Below are positions 9,844 through 32,526 of a stretch of 64,000 bases of DNA, in pieces. How positions within the stretch are numbered: position 1 is the first letter of the stretch; every line of letters begins with the position of its first letter. The notes under the pieces were generated by a model, which had not been told where the DNA came from, searched no databases, and saw only the letters and a list, made by a program, of their open reading frames with translations. This DNA is from Shigella phage SHSML-52-1: sequence record KX130865; one strand, written 5' to 3'. The translations under genes and the position numbers were made by a program.

Positions 9844-10560
9844 ATGGGAAAACATAACACAATGAAATATATCAAAGCCGCAGATTTTCAAGCCGCATTT
9901 AAAGCAGTCAATCGTGAAATTTTAGAAAACCCTGAATTCGTAACTGATTCTCGTATTGGACGTTGTAATGAAATTGGGTCTATGACAGTAGTTGTTGACA
10001 CTCCATCATCATTCAAAATGACCGACCCACGTATTAACCGCATCTCTTATGAATACGCCGAAGACTTCTGGAAGTTTATGATTTCTGGTGGTACCAACGC
10101 AGAAGAAGCGTTTAAGGCATATCCTAATGTCGCTAAATTTATTTCTAAACCAAAATCAGATGTTTTGCCGGCGAACTTCAACACTTTCTATGGTCCTCGC
10201 ATTGCGGCCCAATTACCAACTCTTCTAAAAGAACTTAAAGAAAAACCTAACTCTCGAAGAGTTGTGTTCCAAATTCTAGAAAGTTCTGATCAGGCTTTGC
10301 TTGATTCGGACGAAACACTTGAATATCCATGTACTGACTCAGTGACTTATTATATTCGTGATGGTAAGCTTTATACCCACTGCCATATGCGTTCTCAGAA
10401 CTGTGCTGTTGTTATGCAGTTGGATTTTTATCTCCAAGGAAAATTACTTCATTATATCGCTAACGAATGCGGTGTAGAAGTTGGTGATTATACTCATACC
10501 ATGGTAAGTGCCCATGTGTTTGAACGTGATTTTGATTATGTTAAAGGATTCCTTGACTAA
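9844..10560 (+). CDS. 42: dCMP hydroxymethylase gp42 (thymidylate-synthase fold)
   Basis: 238 aa; PNSRRVVF and CTDSVTYYIRDGKLYTHCHMRSQN match the TS/dCMP-HMase active-site region (catalytic Cys). Confidence 0.85.
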   Translation: MGKHNTMKYIKAADFQAAFKAVNREILENPEFVTDSRIGRCNEIGSMTVVVDTPSSFKMTDPRINRISYEYAEDFWKFMISGGTNAEEAFKAYPNVAKFISKPKSDVLPANFNTFYGPRIAAQLPTLLKELKEKPNSRRVVFQILESSDQALLDSDETLEYPCTDSVTYYIRDGKLYTHCHMRSQNCAVVMQLDFYLQGKLLHYIANECGVEVGDYTHTMVSAHVFERDFDYVKGFLD

Positions 10561-16249: not shown

Positions 16250-16261
16250 AATAAAATAATT

Positions 16262-16303
16262 GTTTACAGGGGTCTATGGTAGTGATACTATAGACCTATC
16301 AAC
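16262..16303 (+). promoter_or_regulatory. PeSL-type early promoter (GTTTAC 16262-16267; inverted repeat GGTCTAT / ATAGACC)
   Basis: Contains the recurrent TATAGACCTATCAAC core found at seven plus-strand junctions. Confidence 0.5.
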
Positions 16304-16319
16304 TATAGAGGAAATTGAA

Positions 16320-16688
16320 ATGAAAAAATTAATCGCTTTAGCAATGGTATTTGGATTAACCGGATGTGGTGCTCATGGCTTTATCCCTAATAACGTTGGC
16401 CAACTGATTTACAATCCGAATGTTAAACAGTATGACCAACCTAAAGTTGAAGTGGAAGACCCGGTTACTGTAGGTAATCGAATGATTCAAGCTGATGCTC
16501 ATGCTCAACGTTATCGTGACTCTGATACTGTAGCTATGTCAAAAGAACAACGCGTTAAAGAACATTGTCTACAGGCTACTGAAATCGCATTTATTCGCTA
16601 TGTTGAAACAACTGGTAAAGAGCCTACCCAGAAACAAATCGCGAATAACTACGTCCAGTGTATTGAACGTTTAAACAAATTTAATTAA
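16320..16688 (+). CDS. putative lipoprotein
   Basis: Signal peptide with lipobox (MKKLIALAMVFGLTGC); ATG 16320 with RBS AGAGGAAATTGAA; track ORF 16260 begins at an upstream TTG. Confidence 0.55.
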   Translation: MKKLIALAMVFGLTGCGAHGFIPNNVGQLIYNPNVKQYDQPKVEVEDPVTVGNRMIQADAHAQRYRDSDTVAMSKEQRVKEHCLQATEIAFIRYVETTGKEPTQKQIANNYVQCIERLNKFN

Positions 16689-16749
16689 TTGGTTTACACC
16701 AAAGTTAAACCAAGATACTATAAACATAACAAATCAAGAGGAAATTAAC

Positions 16750-16998
16750 ATGGAATTATTCGTGGCTAGTTCAGTAGCAGTTTTAATCGCAGGTATTGGT
16801 TCAATCATCATTTACATGTTGCCTTGGGTAATCGCACTTATTCGTGGCACAAAAAGCACAACAGCAATCTTCTTTGTATCTTTACTCTTTAACTGGACGA
16901 TGGTTGGTTGGATTGGAACTTTAATTTGGTCTATCGTTGCCGAAAAGAAATCGGCTCAGCAGCCTCAACAAGTAATTATTATTCGCGAAAAAGAATAA
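16750..16998 (+). CDS. imm: superinfection immunity (Imm)-like membrane protein
   Basis: 82 aa, two TM segments, motif LPWVIALIRG…WTMVGWIGTLIW resembling the Imm_superinfect family. Confidence 0.5.
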   Translation: MELFVASSVAVLIAGIGSIIIYMLPWVIALIRGTKSTTAIFFVSLLFNWTMVGWIGTLIWSIVAEKKSAQQPQQVIIIREKE

Positions 16999-17002
16999 AC
17001 TT

Positions 17003-17061: not shown

Positions 17062-17355
17062 ATGAAAAAGTTATCATTGGCAGCAATCCTACTTGCAGTA
17101 TCATGTGCACCAGCTCCAGTTACAGCAGGTTATGATAAAGACCTCTGTGAGTGGTCAATGACTGCAAATCAAGAAGATGTTGAACAACAAATCTTCTCTG
17201 ATATCATGAACATCACTAAACGAGACCGTCCTAATATGGTTAATAAAGTTGTTGAACAACTTAAGTCTGGCGGTATCATGCAGTACAACTATGTTTTGTA
17301 TTGTGACCCTAATTTCGATAACAAAGATATCGTAACCGAAATCACAGGTGAATAA
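17062..17355 (+). CDS. sp: spackle-like periplasmic protein
   Basis: 97 aa with signal peptide; GYDKDLCEWSMTA…GGIMQYNYVLYCD resembles T4 Sp as recalled. Confidence 0.55.
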   Translation: MKKLSLAAILLAVSCAPAPVTAGYDKDLCEWSMTANQEDVEQQIFSDIMNITKRDRPNMVNKVVEQLKSGGIMQYNYVLYCDPNFDNKDIVTEITGE

Positions 17356-17356
17356 T

Positions 17357-18007
17357 ATGATTTATTATATGCACAAAAACGCGCCATTTAAATATGGTAA
17401 ATTTCCTAATGCACAATGTTATAATATAACGCCGAATGAAAATAATAACGGATATCATATTGGTGTAATTTTTGTAATTGTTAAAGATAACGAAATCGTC
17501 GCCTGGGCAGATTTTAAAGGTACAACATATGATGTTAATCCAGTGCCTTTCACATATTATAATTTAATGGATTTGGCATACGACTATAATTGGTTTACTC
17601 ATGATACTCTAGCACATGTTGAAGGCGTAGGATTTGACATCTCTTATTCTAGCTATTCATTATGTCCTATGAGCCGAGCTCACGGTAAAGATGTATCATA
17701 TCTTTCAATTCGGAAACGTGTAAACTTCAAACGTAGTACAGAGTATGTTGGTGGACTCTTTGTTAAAGATAATAAAATAACCCGTATTAGTTATCCTTTA
17801 AGTGTAGGTCAAAAAGATGTTGATGTTGATTTAGACTTAACTGAAAATAACATTAATCATATTGCTTCTGTATATTTTGATATCGATGAAAAAATTGTAG
17901 TGTGTGGATACGAATTACCACCTGAAGAAAAGGATGAAACAATTGAAGTCGAATTAGAAATTTCTGTTGATGACCAAATATTTAATGCATTTATGAATCG
18001 AGGTTAA
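17357..18007 (+). CDS. hypothetical protein (216 aa)
   Basis: Track ORF (GTG 17348); ATG 17357 follows the sp stop; no family recognised. Confidence 0.55.
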   Translation: MIYYMHKNAPFKYGKFPNAQCYNITPNENNNGYHIGVIFVIVKDNEIVAWADFKGTTYDVNPVPFTYYNLMDLAYDYNWFTHDTLAHVEGVGFDISYSSYSLCPMSRAHGKDVSYLSIRKRVNFKRSTEYVGGLFVKDNKITRISYPLSVGQKDVDVDLDLTENNINHIASVYFDIDEKIVVCGYELPPEEKDETIEVELEISVDDQIFNAFMNRG

Positions 18008-18225: not shown

Positions 18226-18693
18226 ATGGGTATTATTAACACTGCAATAGATTCTGTTTACGCATATAAGTTTATTCGACTAATGCAAAAACCTTTTACC
18301 GAATGGAAAGCGTATGAAGCCAAAATCATCGACGAACGTGGAAGTGTTCTTAAACGTCCTTCTACTCCCGAAGAGAAAGCGGCTTATACACCTTTTCATG
18401 CTTCAGTTCGTTCAATGAAGCGAATGATGAGTACTGTTCCAGGTCTTAATGGAATGGCCTCAATGATGTCTGCCTGGAGTGCCGTAGCATCCCGCTATAA
18501 CATTACAGAAGAACAACAGAAAGAAATATTTAAAGAACTCCCTTTATTTGAGGATATGGTTGCTGGTGATTCAGGCGGTAGTCCTCAAGCTATTGCATCA
18601 GGAACTACTACAGGTGCAATTGTAAATAAAGGTCCAGAACAAATTCCTTCCAAGAAAAGAAAGCGAATTAAAGTAAATATTAATAAGTTGTGA
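18226..18693 (+). CDS. hypothetical protein with basic C-terminal tail (KKRKRIKVNINKL)
   Basis: ATG 18226 preceded by AGGAGG; track ORF starts 18199. Confidence 0.5.
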   Translation: MGIINTAIDSVYAYKFIRLMQKPFTEWKAYEAKIIDERGSVLKRPSTPEEKAAYTPFHASVRSMKRMMSTVPGLNGMASMMSAWSAVASRYNITEEQQKEIFKELPLFEDMVAGDSGGSPQAIASGTTTGAIVNKGPEQIPSKKRKRIKVNINKL

Positions 18694-18699
18694 TAAGAT

Positions 18700-18719
18700 G
18701 GCCTTATTAATTTAAGGCC
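18700..18719 (+). promoter_or_regulatory. hairpin GGCCTTA-TTAATT-TAAGGCC upstream of gene 61
   Basis: 7-bp perfect inverted repeat in the 39-nt spacer before the gene 61 ATG; no U-run. Confidence 0.35.
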
Positions 18720-18732
18720 TCTGGAGAATACT

Positions 18733-19755
18733 ATGGCTGAATGGATAGATAATGAATTTGCTTATCGTGCGTTTTCTCACCTCCCTCGTTTTAGACAAAT
18801 CAATAATTCAAGCACATTTAAATTAACATTTCGTTGTCCAGTTTGTGGCGACTCCCAGACAGATGCAATGAAAGCTCGCGGATGGTATTATGGCGGTACT
18901 CCAGGTAATGTGCATTGCTATAACTGTCAATACCACAATACAATTTCTGGATACTTAAAAGAGTATGATGAAGAGCTTTATCGCGAATATCTAATGGAAG
19001 TTCGTAAAGAAAAAGCTAGAATGGAACCAAAGATTGAAAAGGTTCCTGAAGCTAAGCCGGAGCCAGAGAAAAAGACTATAAATTCTTTGCCATCTTGTTC
19101 TCGTCTGGACAAGTTGCCTGAAGAGCATCCTATTGTGAAATATGTTAAGTCTCGGTGTATTCCTAAAGAATCGTGGAACAGATTATGGTTCACATTAGAA
19201 TGGCCCAAATTGGTCAACAAGATTCAACCTGGTACGTATAAGAAAGAGATTCCTGAACCGCGTTTAGTGATTCCTATTTTTAATAAAGATGGGAAGGCCG
19301 AGTCATTCCAAGGACGTGCACTTCGTAAAGATGCTCCTCAGAAATATATCACTATTAAAGCGTTTGAGTCTGCAACAAAAATTTATGGTGTTGAACGTGT
19401 TAAGGAAGGAGACGTCTGGGTAATGGAAGGCCCTATTGATAGTTTATTCATACCCAATGCAATCGCTATTACAGGCGGCTCGATAGATTTAGATGTGGTA
19501 CCATTTAAAGAACGTCGGGTATGGGTAATGGATAATGAACCTAGGCATCCGGATACTATAGCTCGTATGAAGCGATTAGTTGATGCAGGCGAACGTGTCA
19601 TGTTCTGGGACCGAGCTCCATGGAGATCAAAGGATGTGAATGATATGGTAATGAAAGAAAATGCAACACCACAAGAAATTTTAGAATATATGAAACAGAA
19701 TATTTCAAGTGGGTTGCATGCTAAAATGAGATTATCTCGTTATTCGAAGATTTAA
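18733..19755 (+). CDS. 61: DNA primase gp61
   Basis: 340 aa; zinc ribbon CPVCGDS…CYNC and overall match to recalled T4 gp61. Confidence 0.93.
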   Translation: MAEWIDNEFAYRAFSHLPRFRQINNSSTFKLTFRCPVCGDSQTDAMKARGWYYGGTPGNVHCYNCQYHNTISGYLKEYDEELYREYLMEVRKEKARMEPKIEKVPEAKPEPEKKTINSLPSCSRLDKLPEEHPIVKYVKSRCIPKESWNRLWFTLEWPKLVNKIQPGTYKKEIPEPRLVIPIFNKDGKAESFQGRALRKDAPQKYITIKAFESATKIYGVERVKEGDVWVMEGPIDSLFIPNAIAITGGSIDLDVVPFKERRVWVMDNEPRHPDTIARMKRLVDAGERVMFWDRAPWRSKDVNDMVMKENATPQEILEYMKQNISSGLHAKMRLSRYSKI

Positions 19756-19949
19756 ACAAGCCCTATAATAGCAAAGGCCAAATCAACTACAGTATCCAAT
19801 GGAATAGAAGGAACTATAATACCATGGGCAACTAACAATGGTGCAATCCCGAAGTTCCATGAAATAATGCCACCTACAACTATTGCAGCGATAGCAGTTT
19901 TCTTTTTATTGCCTTTAATAGCGTTGATTAACGATGGAAGTTTAAACAT
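19752..19949 (-). CDS. small membrane protein (65 aa), antisense to the surrounding early genes
   Basis: Strong RBS AAGGAGATATT before ATG on the minus strand; hydrophobic segments; convergent with gene 61. Confidence 0.45.
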   Translation of the reverse strand: MFKLPSLINAIKGNKKKTAIAAIVVGGIISWNFGIAPLLVAHGIIVPSIPLDTVVDLAFAIIGLV

Positions 19950-19978
19950 AATATCTCCTTAGTTACCTATTATTTATT

Positions 19979-20004
19979 ACGCTTTATAAAATTAATGTTA
20001 GAAT
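19979..20004 (+). promoter_or_regulatory. putative middle promoter for gene 56 (ACGCTTTA 19979-19986, -10 TAGAAT 19999-20004)
   Basis: MotA-box-like element with 12-bp spacing to -10. Confidence 0.4.
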
Positions 20005-20037
20005 TAACTTTCTTATACTGAATTGAAAGGAAAAATA

Positions 20038-20559
20038 ATGGCACACTTTAACGAATGTTCACAACTTATTTCTGGTGTTGATAAAGCAGAAGAAGCTTAT
20101 TTTAATGCTCTGATTCACGAAGATAAAGACCCACTGCAGGTAATGCTTGATATGCAGAAATCTTTACAGGTTCGTCTGGCAAATGACAAGCCTGAACATA
20201 ACAAACATCCTGATGAATTGGCTACTGCTGGTGATGTTGTTGATTGGCTGCGTAATCAGAAAGATTATATTGATGATGAATTCCGTGAACTGCTGACTTC
20301 ACTTGGTGGTATGAGCAATGGTGAAAAAGCCGCTAGCTCTGTATGGAAGCCATGGAAAGCACAACATGCTGAATATCGAAATCGTCGTATCGATGAATTG
20401 TCTCCTGAAGACCAGCTTGAAATTAAATTTGAGATGATTGATATCCTCCACTTTGTTCTGAATATGTTCCAAGGTCTGGGTCTTTCTGCTGAAGAAATCT
20501 TTAAACTTTATTACCTGAAAAATGCTGAAAATTTCGCACGTCAAGACCGAGGTTATTAA
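20038..20559 (+). CDS. 56: dCTP pyrophosphatase gp56 (MazG-like)
   Basis: N-terminus MAHFNEC… and overall match to recalled T4 gp56; track ORF starts at upstream TTG 20023. Confidence 0.9.
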   Translation: MAHFNECSQLISGVDKAEEAYFNALIHEDKDPLQVMLDMQKSLQVRLANDKPEHNKHPDELATAGDVVDWLRNQKDYIDDEFRELLTSLGGMSNGEKAASSVWKPWKAQHAEYRNRRIDELSPEDQLEIKFEMIDILHFVLNMFQGLGLSAEEIFKLYYLKNAENFARQDRGY

Positions 20560-20726
20560 TGGCTCGTTTAAATAAACGCCAACTCAAGAAAGCCCATAAG
20601 AAACGTATTGACCGGCTATTTAAAGATTATAACAAAGAGCTCGTGTGTGAGCTCTTAACTAATCAACTTCGTATGGTTGAAGTTATAGAAGGTCCTGACG
20701 AAATTTTGTCAGTGAAGAAGCTTTAA
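20559..20726 (+). CDS. hypothetical basic protein (55 aa)
   Basis: TAATG overlap with the gene 56 stop; not in track (below 60 aa). Confidence 0.3.
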   Translation: MARLNKRQLKKAHKKRIDRLFKDYNKELVCELLTNQLRMVEVIEGPDEILSVKKL

Positions 20727-30708: not shown

Positions 30709-32526
30709 ATGATTAAAAATGAAATTAAGGTATTGTCAGATGTAGAACATATTAAGAAACGTAGTGGTATGTATATTGGTTCTTCTGCCAAAGAAGCCCA
30801 CGAGCGTTTTTTGTTTGGTAAATATCAACAAGTTGAATATGTTCCTGGTCTGGTTAAATTAATCGATGAGATTATTGACAACTCGGTTGATGAAGCTATT
30901 CGTACATCATTTAAGTTTGCAAATAAAATTGATGTGCAAATTAAAAATAATCAAGTTTCGGTGGAAGATAACGGACGTGGTATTCCTCAAGGTTTAGTTA
31001 CCGACCAAACGGGTGAACAAATTCCTGGGCCTGTAGCAGCCTGGACTATTCCAAAGGCAGGTGGTAACTTTGGTGATGACTCTGAACGCAAGACTGGTGG
31101 TATGAACGGCGTCGGGAGTAGTTTAACTAATATCTTCTCTACGTTGTTTACAGGCATCACGTCAGATGGTGAAAATGAAATCACTGTTAACTGTTCAAAC
31201 GGAATGGAAAACAAATCATGGTCTTCTAAGAAATCTAAAGGTAAAGGCACTAAAGTAATCTTCACTCCTGATTTCTCTTCATTTGAAGAGCATAATTTAT
31301 CTCAAATTTATTTAGATATTACTTTAGACCGACTTCAAACATTGGCAGTCGTTTATCCTGATATCAAGTTCACATTTAATGGTAAAAAGGTCGATGGTAA
31401 TTTTAAACGATTTGCTAAACAATTTGGTGAAGATAACATCATTCAAGAAAATGATAAAGTCTCTATAGCATTCACAACATCACCAGATGGCTTCCGTCAT
31501 TTAACTTATGTGAATAACATCCATACTAAAAATGGTGGACATCATGTTGAATGTGTAATGGACGATATCTGCGAACATCTTTTGCCGGGTATTAAAAAGA
31601 AATATAAGGGTATTGAAGTCACTAAAGCTCGTGTTAAAGAATGTCTCACAATGTTGATGTTTATTAGAGACATGAGCAACATGCGTTTTGATTCTCAGAC
31701 TAAAGAACGTTTAACGTCAACGTATGGTGATATTCGTAATCATATCCAATTAGATGCTAAGAAAATTGCTCAGGCGCTTCTTAAAAACGAAGCCTTGATT
31801 ATGCCTATTGTTGAAGCAGCATTAGCTCGTAAATTGGCGGCAGAAAAGGCTGCAGAAACTAAAGCAGCTAAAAAGGCAACTAAAGCTAAGGTTCATAAGC
31901 ATATTAAAGCTAACCAATGTGGTAAAGATGCAGATACGACATTGTTCTTAACAGAAGGTGATTCTGCAATTGGTTATCTCATTGATGTTCGTGACCGTGA
32001 ACTACATGGTGGATTCCCATTACGTGGTAAGGTAATGAATAGCTGGGGTATGTCATATGCTGATATGATGAAGAACAAAGAGCTCTTTGATATCTGTGCT
32101 ATCACAGGTCTTATTCTTGGTGAAAAGGCAGAGAATACGAACTATCGTAATATTGCAATTATGACCGATGCCGATCATGACGGTCTTGGAAGTATTTATC
32201 CGGCTTTGCTTGCTTTCTTTAGTAATTGGCCTGAATTGTTTGAACAAGGACGTATTCGCTTTGTTAAAACGCCTGTAATTATTGCACAAATTGGCAAAAC
32301 TCAAAAATGGTTTTATACTGTAGCTGAGTATGAAGAAGTTAAAGATACACTGCCTAAGCATAGTATTCGATACATCAAGGGATTGGGCTCCCTTGAAAAG
32401 TCAGAATATCGTGAAATGATTCAGAACCCTGTGTACGACGTAGTTAAACTTCCTGAAAATTGGAAAGAACTATTTGAAATGTTGTTGGGTGATGATTCAG
32501 AACTTCGTAAAGAATGGATGTCCTAA
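30709..32526 (+). CDS. 39: topoisomerase II large (GyrB-like ATPase) subunit, contiguous gp39+gp60
   Basis: 605 aa single ORF with GHKL ATPase and TOPRIM regions; no split gene 60 or bypass gap. Confidence 0.9.
   Translation: MIKNEIKVLSDVEHIKKRSGMYIGSSAKEAHERFLFGKYQQVEYVPGLVKLIDEIIDNSVDEAIRTSFKFANKIDVQIKNNQVSVEDNGRGIPQGLVTDQTGEQIPGPVAAWTIPKAGGNFGDDSERKTGGMNGVGSSLTNIFSTLFTGITSDGENEITVNCSNGMENKSWSSKKSKGKGTKVIFTPDFSSFEEHNLSQIYLDITLDRLQTLAVVYPDIKFTFNGKKVDGNFKRFAKQFGEDNIIQENDKVSIAFTTSPDGFRHLTYVNNIHTKNGGHHVECVMDDICEHLLPGIKKKYKGIEVTKARVKECLTMLMFIRDMSNMRFDSQTKERLTSTYGDIRNHIQLDAKKIAQALLKNEALIMPIVEAALARKLAAEKAAETKAAKKATKAKVHKHIKANQCGKDADTTLFLTEGDSAIGYLIDVRDRELHGGFPLRGKVMNSWGMSYADMMKNKELFDICAITGLILGEKAENTNYRNIAIMTDADHDGLGSIYPALLAFFSNWPELFEQGRIRFVKTPVIIAQIGKTQKWFYTVAEYEEVKDTLPKHSIRYIKGLGSLEKSEYREMIQNPVYDVVKLPENWKELFEMLLGDDSELRKEWMS

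Follow-up and report, generated by a model that had tools for sequence, protein, structure and literature searches.

A conserved opposite-strand gene for a predicted small membrane protein beside the primase gene of T-even phages

A short reading frame of Shigella phage SHSML-52-1 lies on the minus strand among genes read from the plus strand, and it runs head-on into the 3' end of gene 61, the DNA primase gene. Is such a reading frame a gene at all, when would it be expressed, and what could its product do? We addressed these questions by computational analysis of a stretch of 64,000 nucleotides (nt) of sequence record KX130865, referred to below as the window. The window comes from a Mosigvirus, that is, an RB69-like T-even phage, and the 1.9 kb around the open reading frame (ORF) is 96-98% identical to many Mosigvirus genomes.

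Judged by sequence comparison, the ORF of 65 amino acids (aa) is a real gene that codes for a protein in the T-even phages (Tevenvirinae). The reading that we favour, with a probability of about 0.72, is that of a conserved T-even gene for a bitopic inner-membrane protein of about 65 residues, which would be transcribed late and would have an accessory role based on helix association. The gene itself was already known, having been annotated as hypothetical since RB69, and it is a member of an existing PHROG. As a feature it is therefore ordinary, a conserved hypothetical gene of modest importance, and useful. New here are the evidence for selection together with a conserved late promoter motif, a gap in the annotation of T4, pairs of tandem paralogues, and homology to a family of prophage proteins.

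Evidence for a conserved coding sequence

The initial annotation had described a hydrophobic minus-strand ORF of 65 aa with a strong ribosome binding site, converging on gene 61 and overlapping its 3' end by 4 nt, and each of these points was borne out. The translation of the ORF is MFKLPSLINAIKGNKKKTAIAAIVVGGIISWNFGIAPLLVAHGIIVPSIPLDTVVDLAFAIIGLV. The minus-strand sequence leading into its start is CTAAGGAGATATT-ATG, in which the Shine-Dalgarno (SD) sequence AAGGAG stands 5 nt from the ATG; its homologues have GGAGG at the corresponding place. Gene 61 and the ORF overlap by 4 nt because both stop codons lie in the palindrome TTAA (Table 1). The identical overlap of stop codons is annotated in phage 55, in Shf125875, in a T4 record annotated with pharokka, and in Dhakavirus, Gelderlandvirus and Kanagawavirus. 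An opposite-strand gene had also been called unusual among the co-directional genes of this region. As every ORF of at least 90 aa from position 1 to about 44000 of the window is on the plus strand, the orientation of the 65-aa ORF is indeed locally exceptional; the first minus-strand block, that of the tail fibres, starts from 44216.

The ORF matched phrog_2024 over its full length (E 4.5e-27, residues 1-65 against profile positions 1-65 of 65), and so did all 11 representatives of the family, taken from seven genera. Its size, this full-length match and its convergent position at the 3' end of gene 61 make it a member of the RB69ORF029w/PHROG 2024 family. An identical protein is on record as YP_009288990.1 of Shigella phage SHSML-52-1. 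With tblastn, 691 phage records had a match, 684 of them at a coverage of at least 80%. Compared with the divergent Mosigvirus ESCO47, the ORF has 31 synonymous and 20 non-synonymous differences, and the ratio of non-synonymous to synonymous substitution rates (dN/dS) is 0.11. Codon positions 1, 2 and 3 carry 16, 3 and 32 of these differences, respectively. Across nine pairs, taken both within and between genera, dN/dS was 0.10-0.47. Conservation in related phages had been proposed as a check on the ORF, and the reading frame is kept across the seven genera under purifying selection. The ORF fills the sole non-coding gap between genes 61 and 56, and this, together with the strong SD sequence, the conservation and the purifying selection, argues that it is a real gene.

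A homologue of 63-69 codons, convergent with the 3' end of gene 61, was found in Mosigvirus, Tequatrovirus, Gaprivervirus, Dhakavirus, Gelderlandvirus, Kanagawavirus and a Klebsiella T4-like phage. Members of the family adjoin the end of the primase gene and lie upstream of gene 56 (or dam). Krischvirus, Tulanevirus, Lazarusvirus and Slopekvirus, which are Straboviridae outside the Tevenvirinae, lack the ORF at the gene 61 junction. The family is small, with 118 clusters at 90% identity, all of 41-74 aa, and 19 representatives at 50% identity among 1.8 billion proteins. Overall protein identity between genera is 15-50%. Nearly all Mosigvirus records annotate the ORF, and the family is labelled "hypothetical" in hundreds of genomes; the homologue in Shf125875 is annotated as 'similar to RB69ORF029w' and that in phage 55 as 'putative transmembrane protein'.

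The T4 homologue has 66 aa (NC_000866, 17738-17938, plus strand), begins MVQKLMALVNAIKGNKKR... and is preceded by a GGAGG SD sequence. It lies in the 309-bp gap between dam and gene 61, which carries no annotation in NC_000866, the RefSeq record of T4; the recent T4 record annotated with pharokka calls the ORF. In the protein collection searched, the exact T4 sequence came only from assemblies of raw reads, and neither an NCBI nor a UniRef accession exists for it there. Work on phage lysis, lysis inhibition and late transcription takes T4 as its reference organism, and studies of T4 based on annotation would not see the gene because NC_000866 leaves this gap empty.

Predicted protein and its relatives

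The hydrophobic product had been proposed to be a membrane protein, and transmembrane (TM) prediction agrees, with one TM helix supported by the predicted structure, hydropathy and charge. AlphaFold2, run with an alignment of 35 sequences, gave a mean predicted local distance difference test (pLDDT) score of 84, with helices at residues 4-13, 15-41 and 51-62 and a loop at 42-50. The helix 15-41 is 27 residues long, with a block pLDDT of 81-92, and the C-terminal helix has 12 residues. Kyte-Doolittle maxima over 19 residues were 1.65-2.6 in all genera. The N-terminal segment of the 65-aa protein has a charge of +5 and the C-terminal segment one of -2; across genera there are +5 to +7 basic residues before the hydrophobic core, and the C-terminal segment is neutral or acidic. 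The positive-inside rule relates a basic flank to the cytoplasmic side. Because of the basic N-terminal flank, the protein is predicted to be N-in/C-out, with a lysine-rich amphipathic N-terminus in the cytoplasm, one TM helix and a periplasmic tail of about 24 residues.

Three residues, W31, N32 and P37, are invariant; G43 and P47 are conserved to at least 90%, and position 52 is nearly always D or E. The protein shows the pattern of the family (W-N, P five residues further on, G and P in a protein of about 62-69 aa). The tail has the motif G-(V/I/L)-x-(L/V)-P-x-(V/I)-x-(L/M/I)-(D/E) plus a short hydrophobic helix. An Asn conserved at mid-helix within the membrane is a typical mark of helices that associate with each other.

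Some phages carry two copies. In ESCO47 a Dhakavirus-type copy is followed by a Mosigvirus-type copy with an overlap of 8 nt, both behind one CATAAATA (2305-2508 and 2501-2698, locus numbering). Gaprivervirus VR25 and VR26 have both subtypes in the opposite order (1501-1698 and 1707-1907, locus numbering), so that the order is B-A in ESCO47 and A-B in VR25/VR26. The second copy of VR20 is a pseudogene (ATG-TGA; about 2707-2905, locus numbering) and that of CJ20 is partly deleted; the first copy of VR20 ends about 200 nt before gene 61, with the decayed second paralogue between them. These orders and losses suggest an ancestral two-gene operon with differential loss. No paralogue was found elsewhere in the window when a profile of prophage proteins was run against its 1207 six-frame fragments.

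The prophage proteins in question are 96 aa long and came from a scan of IMG/VR with the family pattern. Their C-terminal 45 residues can be aligned with residues 20-64 of the T-even protein and contain the same W-N ... P ... G ... P ... (D/E) pattern. In hhalign, the T-even family and the 96-aa family matched with a probability of 98% (E 3e-13). A profile built from the 96-aa proteins only found the 65-aa ORF among the 1207 fragments at E 2.3e-9. From these comparisons the membrane domain of the 65-aa protein is homologous to the C-terminus of the 96-aa enterobacterial prophage family. The 96-aa proteins differ in that about 45 further residues, an amphipathic helix and a polar linker, precede the shared domain at the N-terminus. 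The two genes also differ in setting, as the prophage genes lie in siphovirus-like prophages near a lysozyme gene whereas the T-even gene adjoins primase. Members of the 96-aa family occur widely in the prophage regions of E. coli, Klebsiella, Serratia and Pectobacterium (e.g. WP_000579857.1). The E. coli gene is located at the end of a degraded siphovirus-like prophage by mipA, about 1.4 kb from a divergent lysozyme gene. It is part of a module of four genes, for a SegE-like GIY-YIG domain protein and for proteins of 186, 103 and 96 aa (the last e.g. at 10001-10291, locus numbering), all annotated as 'hypothetical' in RefSeq E. coli. When the 96-aa protein was searched against cultured phages with tblastn, no match was found. 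The prophage family offers a second system for studying the membrane domain.

Searches of Pfam, NCBIfam, PADLOC and PDB sequences with single sequences and profiles gave nothing significant. Foldseek against BFVD returned family members only, one of which, A0A482MZV5 from a T4-like phage, has the UniProt label 'Holin', an unverified submitter name. Eight of the 96-aa proteins were tested against Pfam. In seven of them PF11351 (GTA_holin_3TM) was the top or only match and was co-linear (E 0.002-0.09, 14-19 bits), and 11 T-even members had no match to PF11351 at E <= 1.

Late promoter motif and possible roles

T4-type late genes depend on gp55, gp33 and gp45, and their transcripts, which require gene 55, arise once DNA replication has begun. 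They have an element of the TATAAATA type at -13 to -6, and no -35 element is needed. Such an element is found upstream of the 65-aa ORF, where AATAAATA differs from it by an A at -13. Of 50 T4 late promoters listed by Geiduschek and Kassavetis (PMC2988020), 32 have a perfect TATAAATA and nine have A for T at -13, which is the commonest variant; T4 late transcripts of either polarity are also described there. Representatives of six of the seven lineages have (N)ATAAATA 12-33 nt before the ATG. The T4 homologue has GATAAATA 20 nt before its ATG (NC_000866, about 17710-17717), the Gaprivervirus and Klebsiella phage homologues have CATAAATA, and a perfect TATAAATA precedes those of Dhakavirus and Kanagawavirus. 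On both strands of the window ATAAATA was observed 13 times against an expected 28.2 +/- 4.9 (100 of 100 shuffles had at least 13), and this depletion suggests that the phage avoids the motif outside places that require it. Of the five perfect TATAAATA sites in the window, four lie 20-31 nt before soc (20937, plus strand) or tail-fibre genes (44896, 49279 and 54359, minus strand), and the 65-aa ORF is on the same strand as the window's only late-gene block, the tail fibres. The initial annotation had suggested late expression. As the motif lies 21 nt upstream, is depleted elsewhere and has the same spacing at known late genes, this is plausible, and late transcription of the ORF is likely.

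A lone minus-strand ATAAATA at 32193-32199, within a large plus-strand early gene (30709-32526), may be another antisense late promoter.

How the parts could work together may be pictured as follows. RNA polymerase with gp55 would use AATAAATA, a variant of the late promoter, to transcribe the 65-aa ORF. Genes 61 and 56 point the same way with no terminator predicted between them, so early and middle transcription would read through from gene 61 into gene 56 and cover the ORF with antisense RNA, and the protein would for that reason appear only late. The invariant intramembrane Asn and the tandem paralogue pairs suggest that it would act by helix-helix association, with itself, with a paralogue or with another late inner-membrane protein.

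Several observations weigh against the favoured reading or against a link with lysis. The first base of the late motif is off consensus in Mosigvirus, T4 and Gaprivervirus, the Gelderlandvirus motif is poor (6 of 8 positions), and in some genera the motif lies so near the SD sequence (12-15 nt from the ATG) that the leader would be very short. The literature on RB69ORF029w, on T4 Ribo-seq and small ORFs, on antisense or late promoters near gene 61, on mapping of T4 transcription start sites and on T4 proteogenomics yielded nothing on the 65-aa ORF, and no transcript, ribosome or peptide evidence for it was found there. In Tequatrovirus 4E10 a frameshift within the lysine-rich N-terminal part leaves a homologue of only 41 codons (2483-2608, locus numbering); this may reflect a sequencing error in an A-run or else mean that the gene is dispensable in culture. 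From this truncated copy and the loss of the second paralogue in VR20 and CJ20, the protein is probably dispensable in culture. The T-even gene does not adjoin e, t, rI or spanin genes, and the support for a role in lysis is circumstantial. The PF11351 scores of the 96-aa relatives span 13.8-19 bits, below the gathering score of 24.8 bits. In NCBIfam the sequences of the same family had an evidently spurious match to a major facilitator superfamily (MFS) transporter at E 6.6e-4, so that E-values of about 1e-3 are noise for these hydrophobic proteins.

As to function, a membrane protein that is probably made late from the opposite strand, has an invariant intramembrane Asn and occurs as tandem paralogues in some phages is a candidate for an accessory role in lysis timing or in events at the envelope. 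Our best guess, offered tentatively, is a dispensable accessory factor of lysis timing, of lysis inhibition or of another late envelope process, acting through association of TM helices. It is rather doubtful that the family is an unrecognised T-even component of lysis, lysis inhibition or the late envelope, forming a two-paralogue operon in some phages and related to a lysozyme-adjacent prophage domain. Small, late, non-essential inner-membrane proteins that bind a holin are known, namely the T4 RI antiholin, LysA/LysB of P2 and S107 of lambda. By analogy, these proteins illustrate a possible mode of action only; the 65-aa protein has no sequence similarity to them, and its gene is not linked to t, rI or e. 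An accessory, non-essential role would explain why classical T4 genetics missed the gene.

Among the alternatives, it is unlikely that the protein is a late envelope-protection or superinfection-exclusion factor like Imm or Sp, or a type-I-toxin-like peptide silenced by early antisense RNA. Its size and topology resemble those of small phage membrane effectors, imm and sp lie 2-3 kb upstream on the other strand, and from the gene order the whole ORF would be under early antisense read-through. However, neither Imm nor Sp nor any family of PADLOC, Pfam or NCBIfam shows sequence similarity to the protein, and Imm and Sp are early genes whereas the 65-aa ORF has a late-type promoter. A type I toxin such as Ldr would be expected to match its family profile and to be paired with a dedicated cis-antisense sRNA; a match to Ldr_toxin was seen in one of 11 members at E 0.1, which is the level of noise.

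It is quite unlikely that the protein is a holin or antiholin proper, i.e. a shortened member of GTA_holin_3TM (PF11351) that permeabilises the inner membrane or gates holin T. Such a role would fit the PF11351 matches of the prophage relatives, which are in the same register, the position of the prophage genes beside a lysozyme gene, and the 'Holin' label of A0A482MZV5. Like the members of PF11351, small membrane proteins of phages and gene transfer agents (GTA), the 65-aa protein is small, and its prophage relatives have co-linear sub-threshold matches; the PF11351 proteins have three TM segments, whereas AlphaFold2 and hydropathy predict one here. All PF11351 scores stay under the gathering score, the T-even proteins have no match, and the spurious MFS match was of similar strength. 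Holins, which form lethal holes that collapse the proton motive force, also differ in lying in a lysis cassette with an endolysin or spanin, where the neighbours here are primase and dCTPase, and in having a charged cytoplasmic C-terminal tail, where the C-terminus here is hydrophobic and uncharged.

Two proteins assigned to PF11351 served as comparators. TeaA of phage ICP1, a holin that has been tested, was assigned to PF11351 through remote homology (PMC7182436), and ORF 26 of Oceanospirillum phage PD0307 has been assigned to the same family (PMC10132091); we took the PD0307 comparator as ORF 26 from gene order, beside the peptidase gene. In hhalign, the 96-aa family matched TeaA and the Oceanospirillum phage protein with probabilities of only 0.4% and 0.7%, a weak test because both targets were single sequences that themselves miss PF11351 by hmmscan. 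Membership of the 65-aa ORF in PF11351 was not filed, given the sub-threshold scores, the missing T-even match and one predicted TM helix instead of three.

It is established T4 genetics that t mutants fail to lyse. The protein thus cannot replace holin T, and a stand-alone holin is ruled out.

It is very unlikely that the conserved element is mainly a late promoter whose antisense RNA targets the 3' part of the gene 61 message, blocks read-through into gene 56 and shuts off primase synthesis late, with the ORF secondary. T4 transcribes both strands at several sites at different times (PMC2988020), and a late transcript would run antisense into gene 61 because no intrinsic terminator is predicted on either strand at 18500-20700. 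Antisense RNA leaves the codon-phase selection unexplained (dN/dS 0.1-0.47; 16/3/32), as it does the strong SD sequence and ATG kept in seven genera and the invariant residues at 15-30% overall identity, and in VR20 the first copy stops some 200 nt short of gene 61. Functions of the protein and of antisense RNA could coexist. Finally, a chance ORF in an AT-rich spacer, propagated by gene callers, has next to no probability: antisense ORFs of 72-81 aa inside neighbouring real genes put the length within chance, and all annotations read 'hypothetical', but the idea is refuted by the in-frame purifying selection, by the conservation of length, start and SD sequence in seven genera at 15-50% protein identity, and by the recovery of the ORF with a profile from unrelated prophage proteins.

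Local gene context

The features of the locus are given in Table 1.

Table 1. Positions in the window of the 65-aa ORF, its signals and selected neighbouring features.
Feature	Position	Strand	Remarks
Spackle (sp)	17062..17355	+	PF25676, E 1e-42
Gene 61, DNA primase, 340 aa	18733..19755	+	phrog_47, E 9e-102; convergent with the 65-aa ORF
Small membrane-protein coding sequence, predicted (RB69ORF029w homologue, PHROG 2024)	19752..19949	-	65 aa, ATG start; from the ORF list
TTAA palindrome, overlapping stop codons of gene 61 (+) and the 65-aa ORF (-)	19752..19755	both	
Predicted TM helix, codons 18-41, with invariant W31-N32 and P37	19827..19898	-	AlphaFold2, hydropathy, charge
SD sequence AAGGAG of the 65-aa ORF	19955..19960	-	5-nt spacer to ATG; read from sequence
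T4-type late promoter motif AATAAATA (A at -13 variant of TATAAATA)	19971..19978	-	ends 21 nt before ATG
Middle-promoter-like site for gene 56	19977..20004	+	MotA-box-like TTACGCTTTA, 12-bp spacer, TAGAAT; consensus match only
Gene 56, dCTP pyrophosphatase (nucleoside-triphosphate pyrophosphohydrolase gp56)	20038..20559	+	phrog_173, E 1.2e-45

From annotated relatives, the order of genes on the plus strand is 41 (helicase), dmd, imm.1, imm, sp, 61.2, 61.1, 61, 56, soc.2, soc.1 and soc, and our own family scans of the window agree with it. In Mosigvirus imm.1 and imm are located between dmd and sp (about 16260-17000 of the window, plus strand), where the T4 interval between dmd and sp has 61.4 only; superinfection-immunity genes are thus clustered with spackle in Mosigvirus.

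Gene 56 is divergent from the promoter region of the 65-aa ORF. The site before it resembles a T4 middle promoter, for which the consensus has a spacing of 12 +/- 1 bp (PMC2988021). This site overlaps the minus-strand late motif back-to-back, so that one stretch of about 35 bp may serve two promoter classes on opposite strands.

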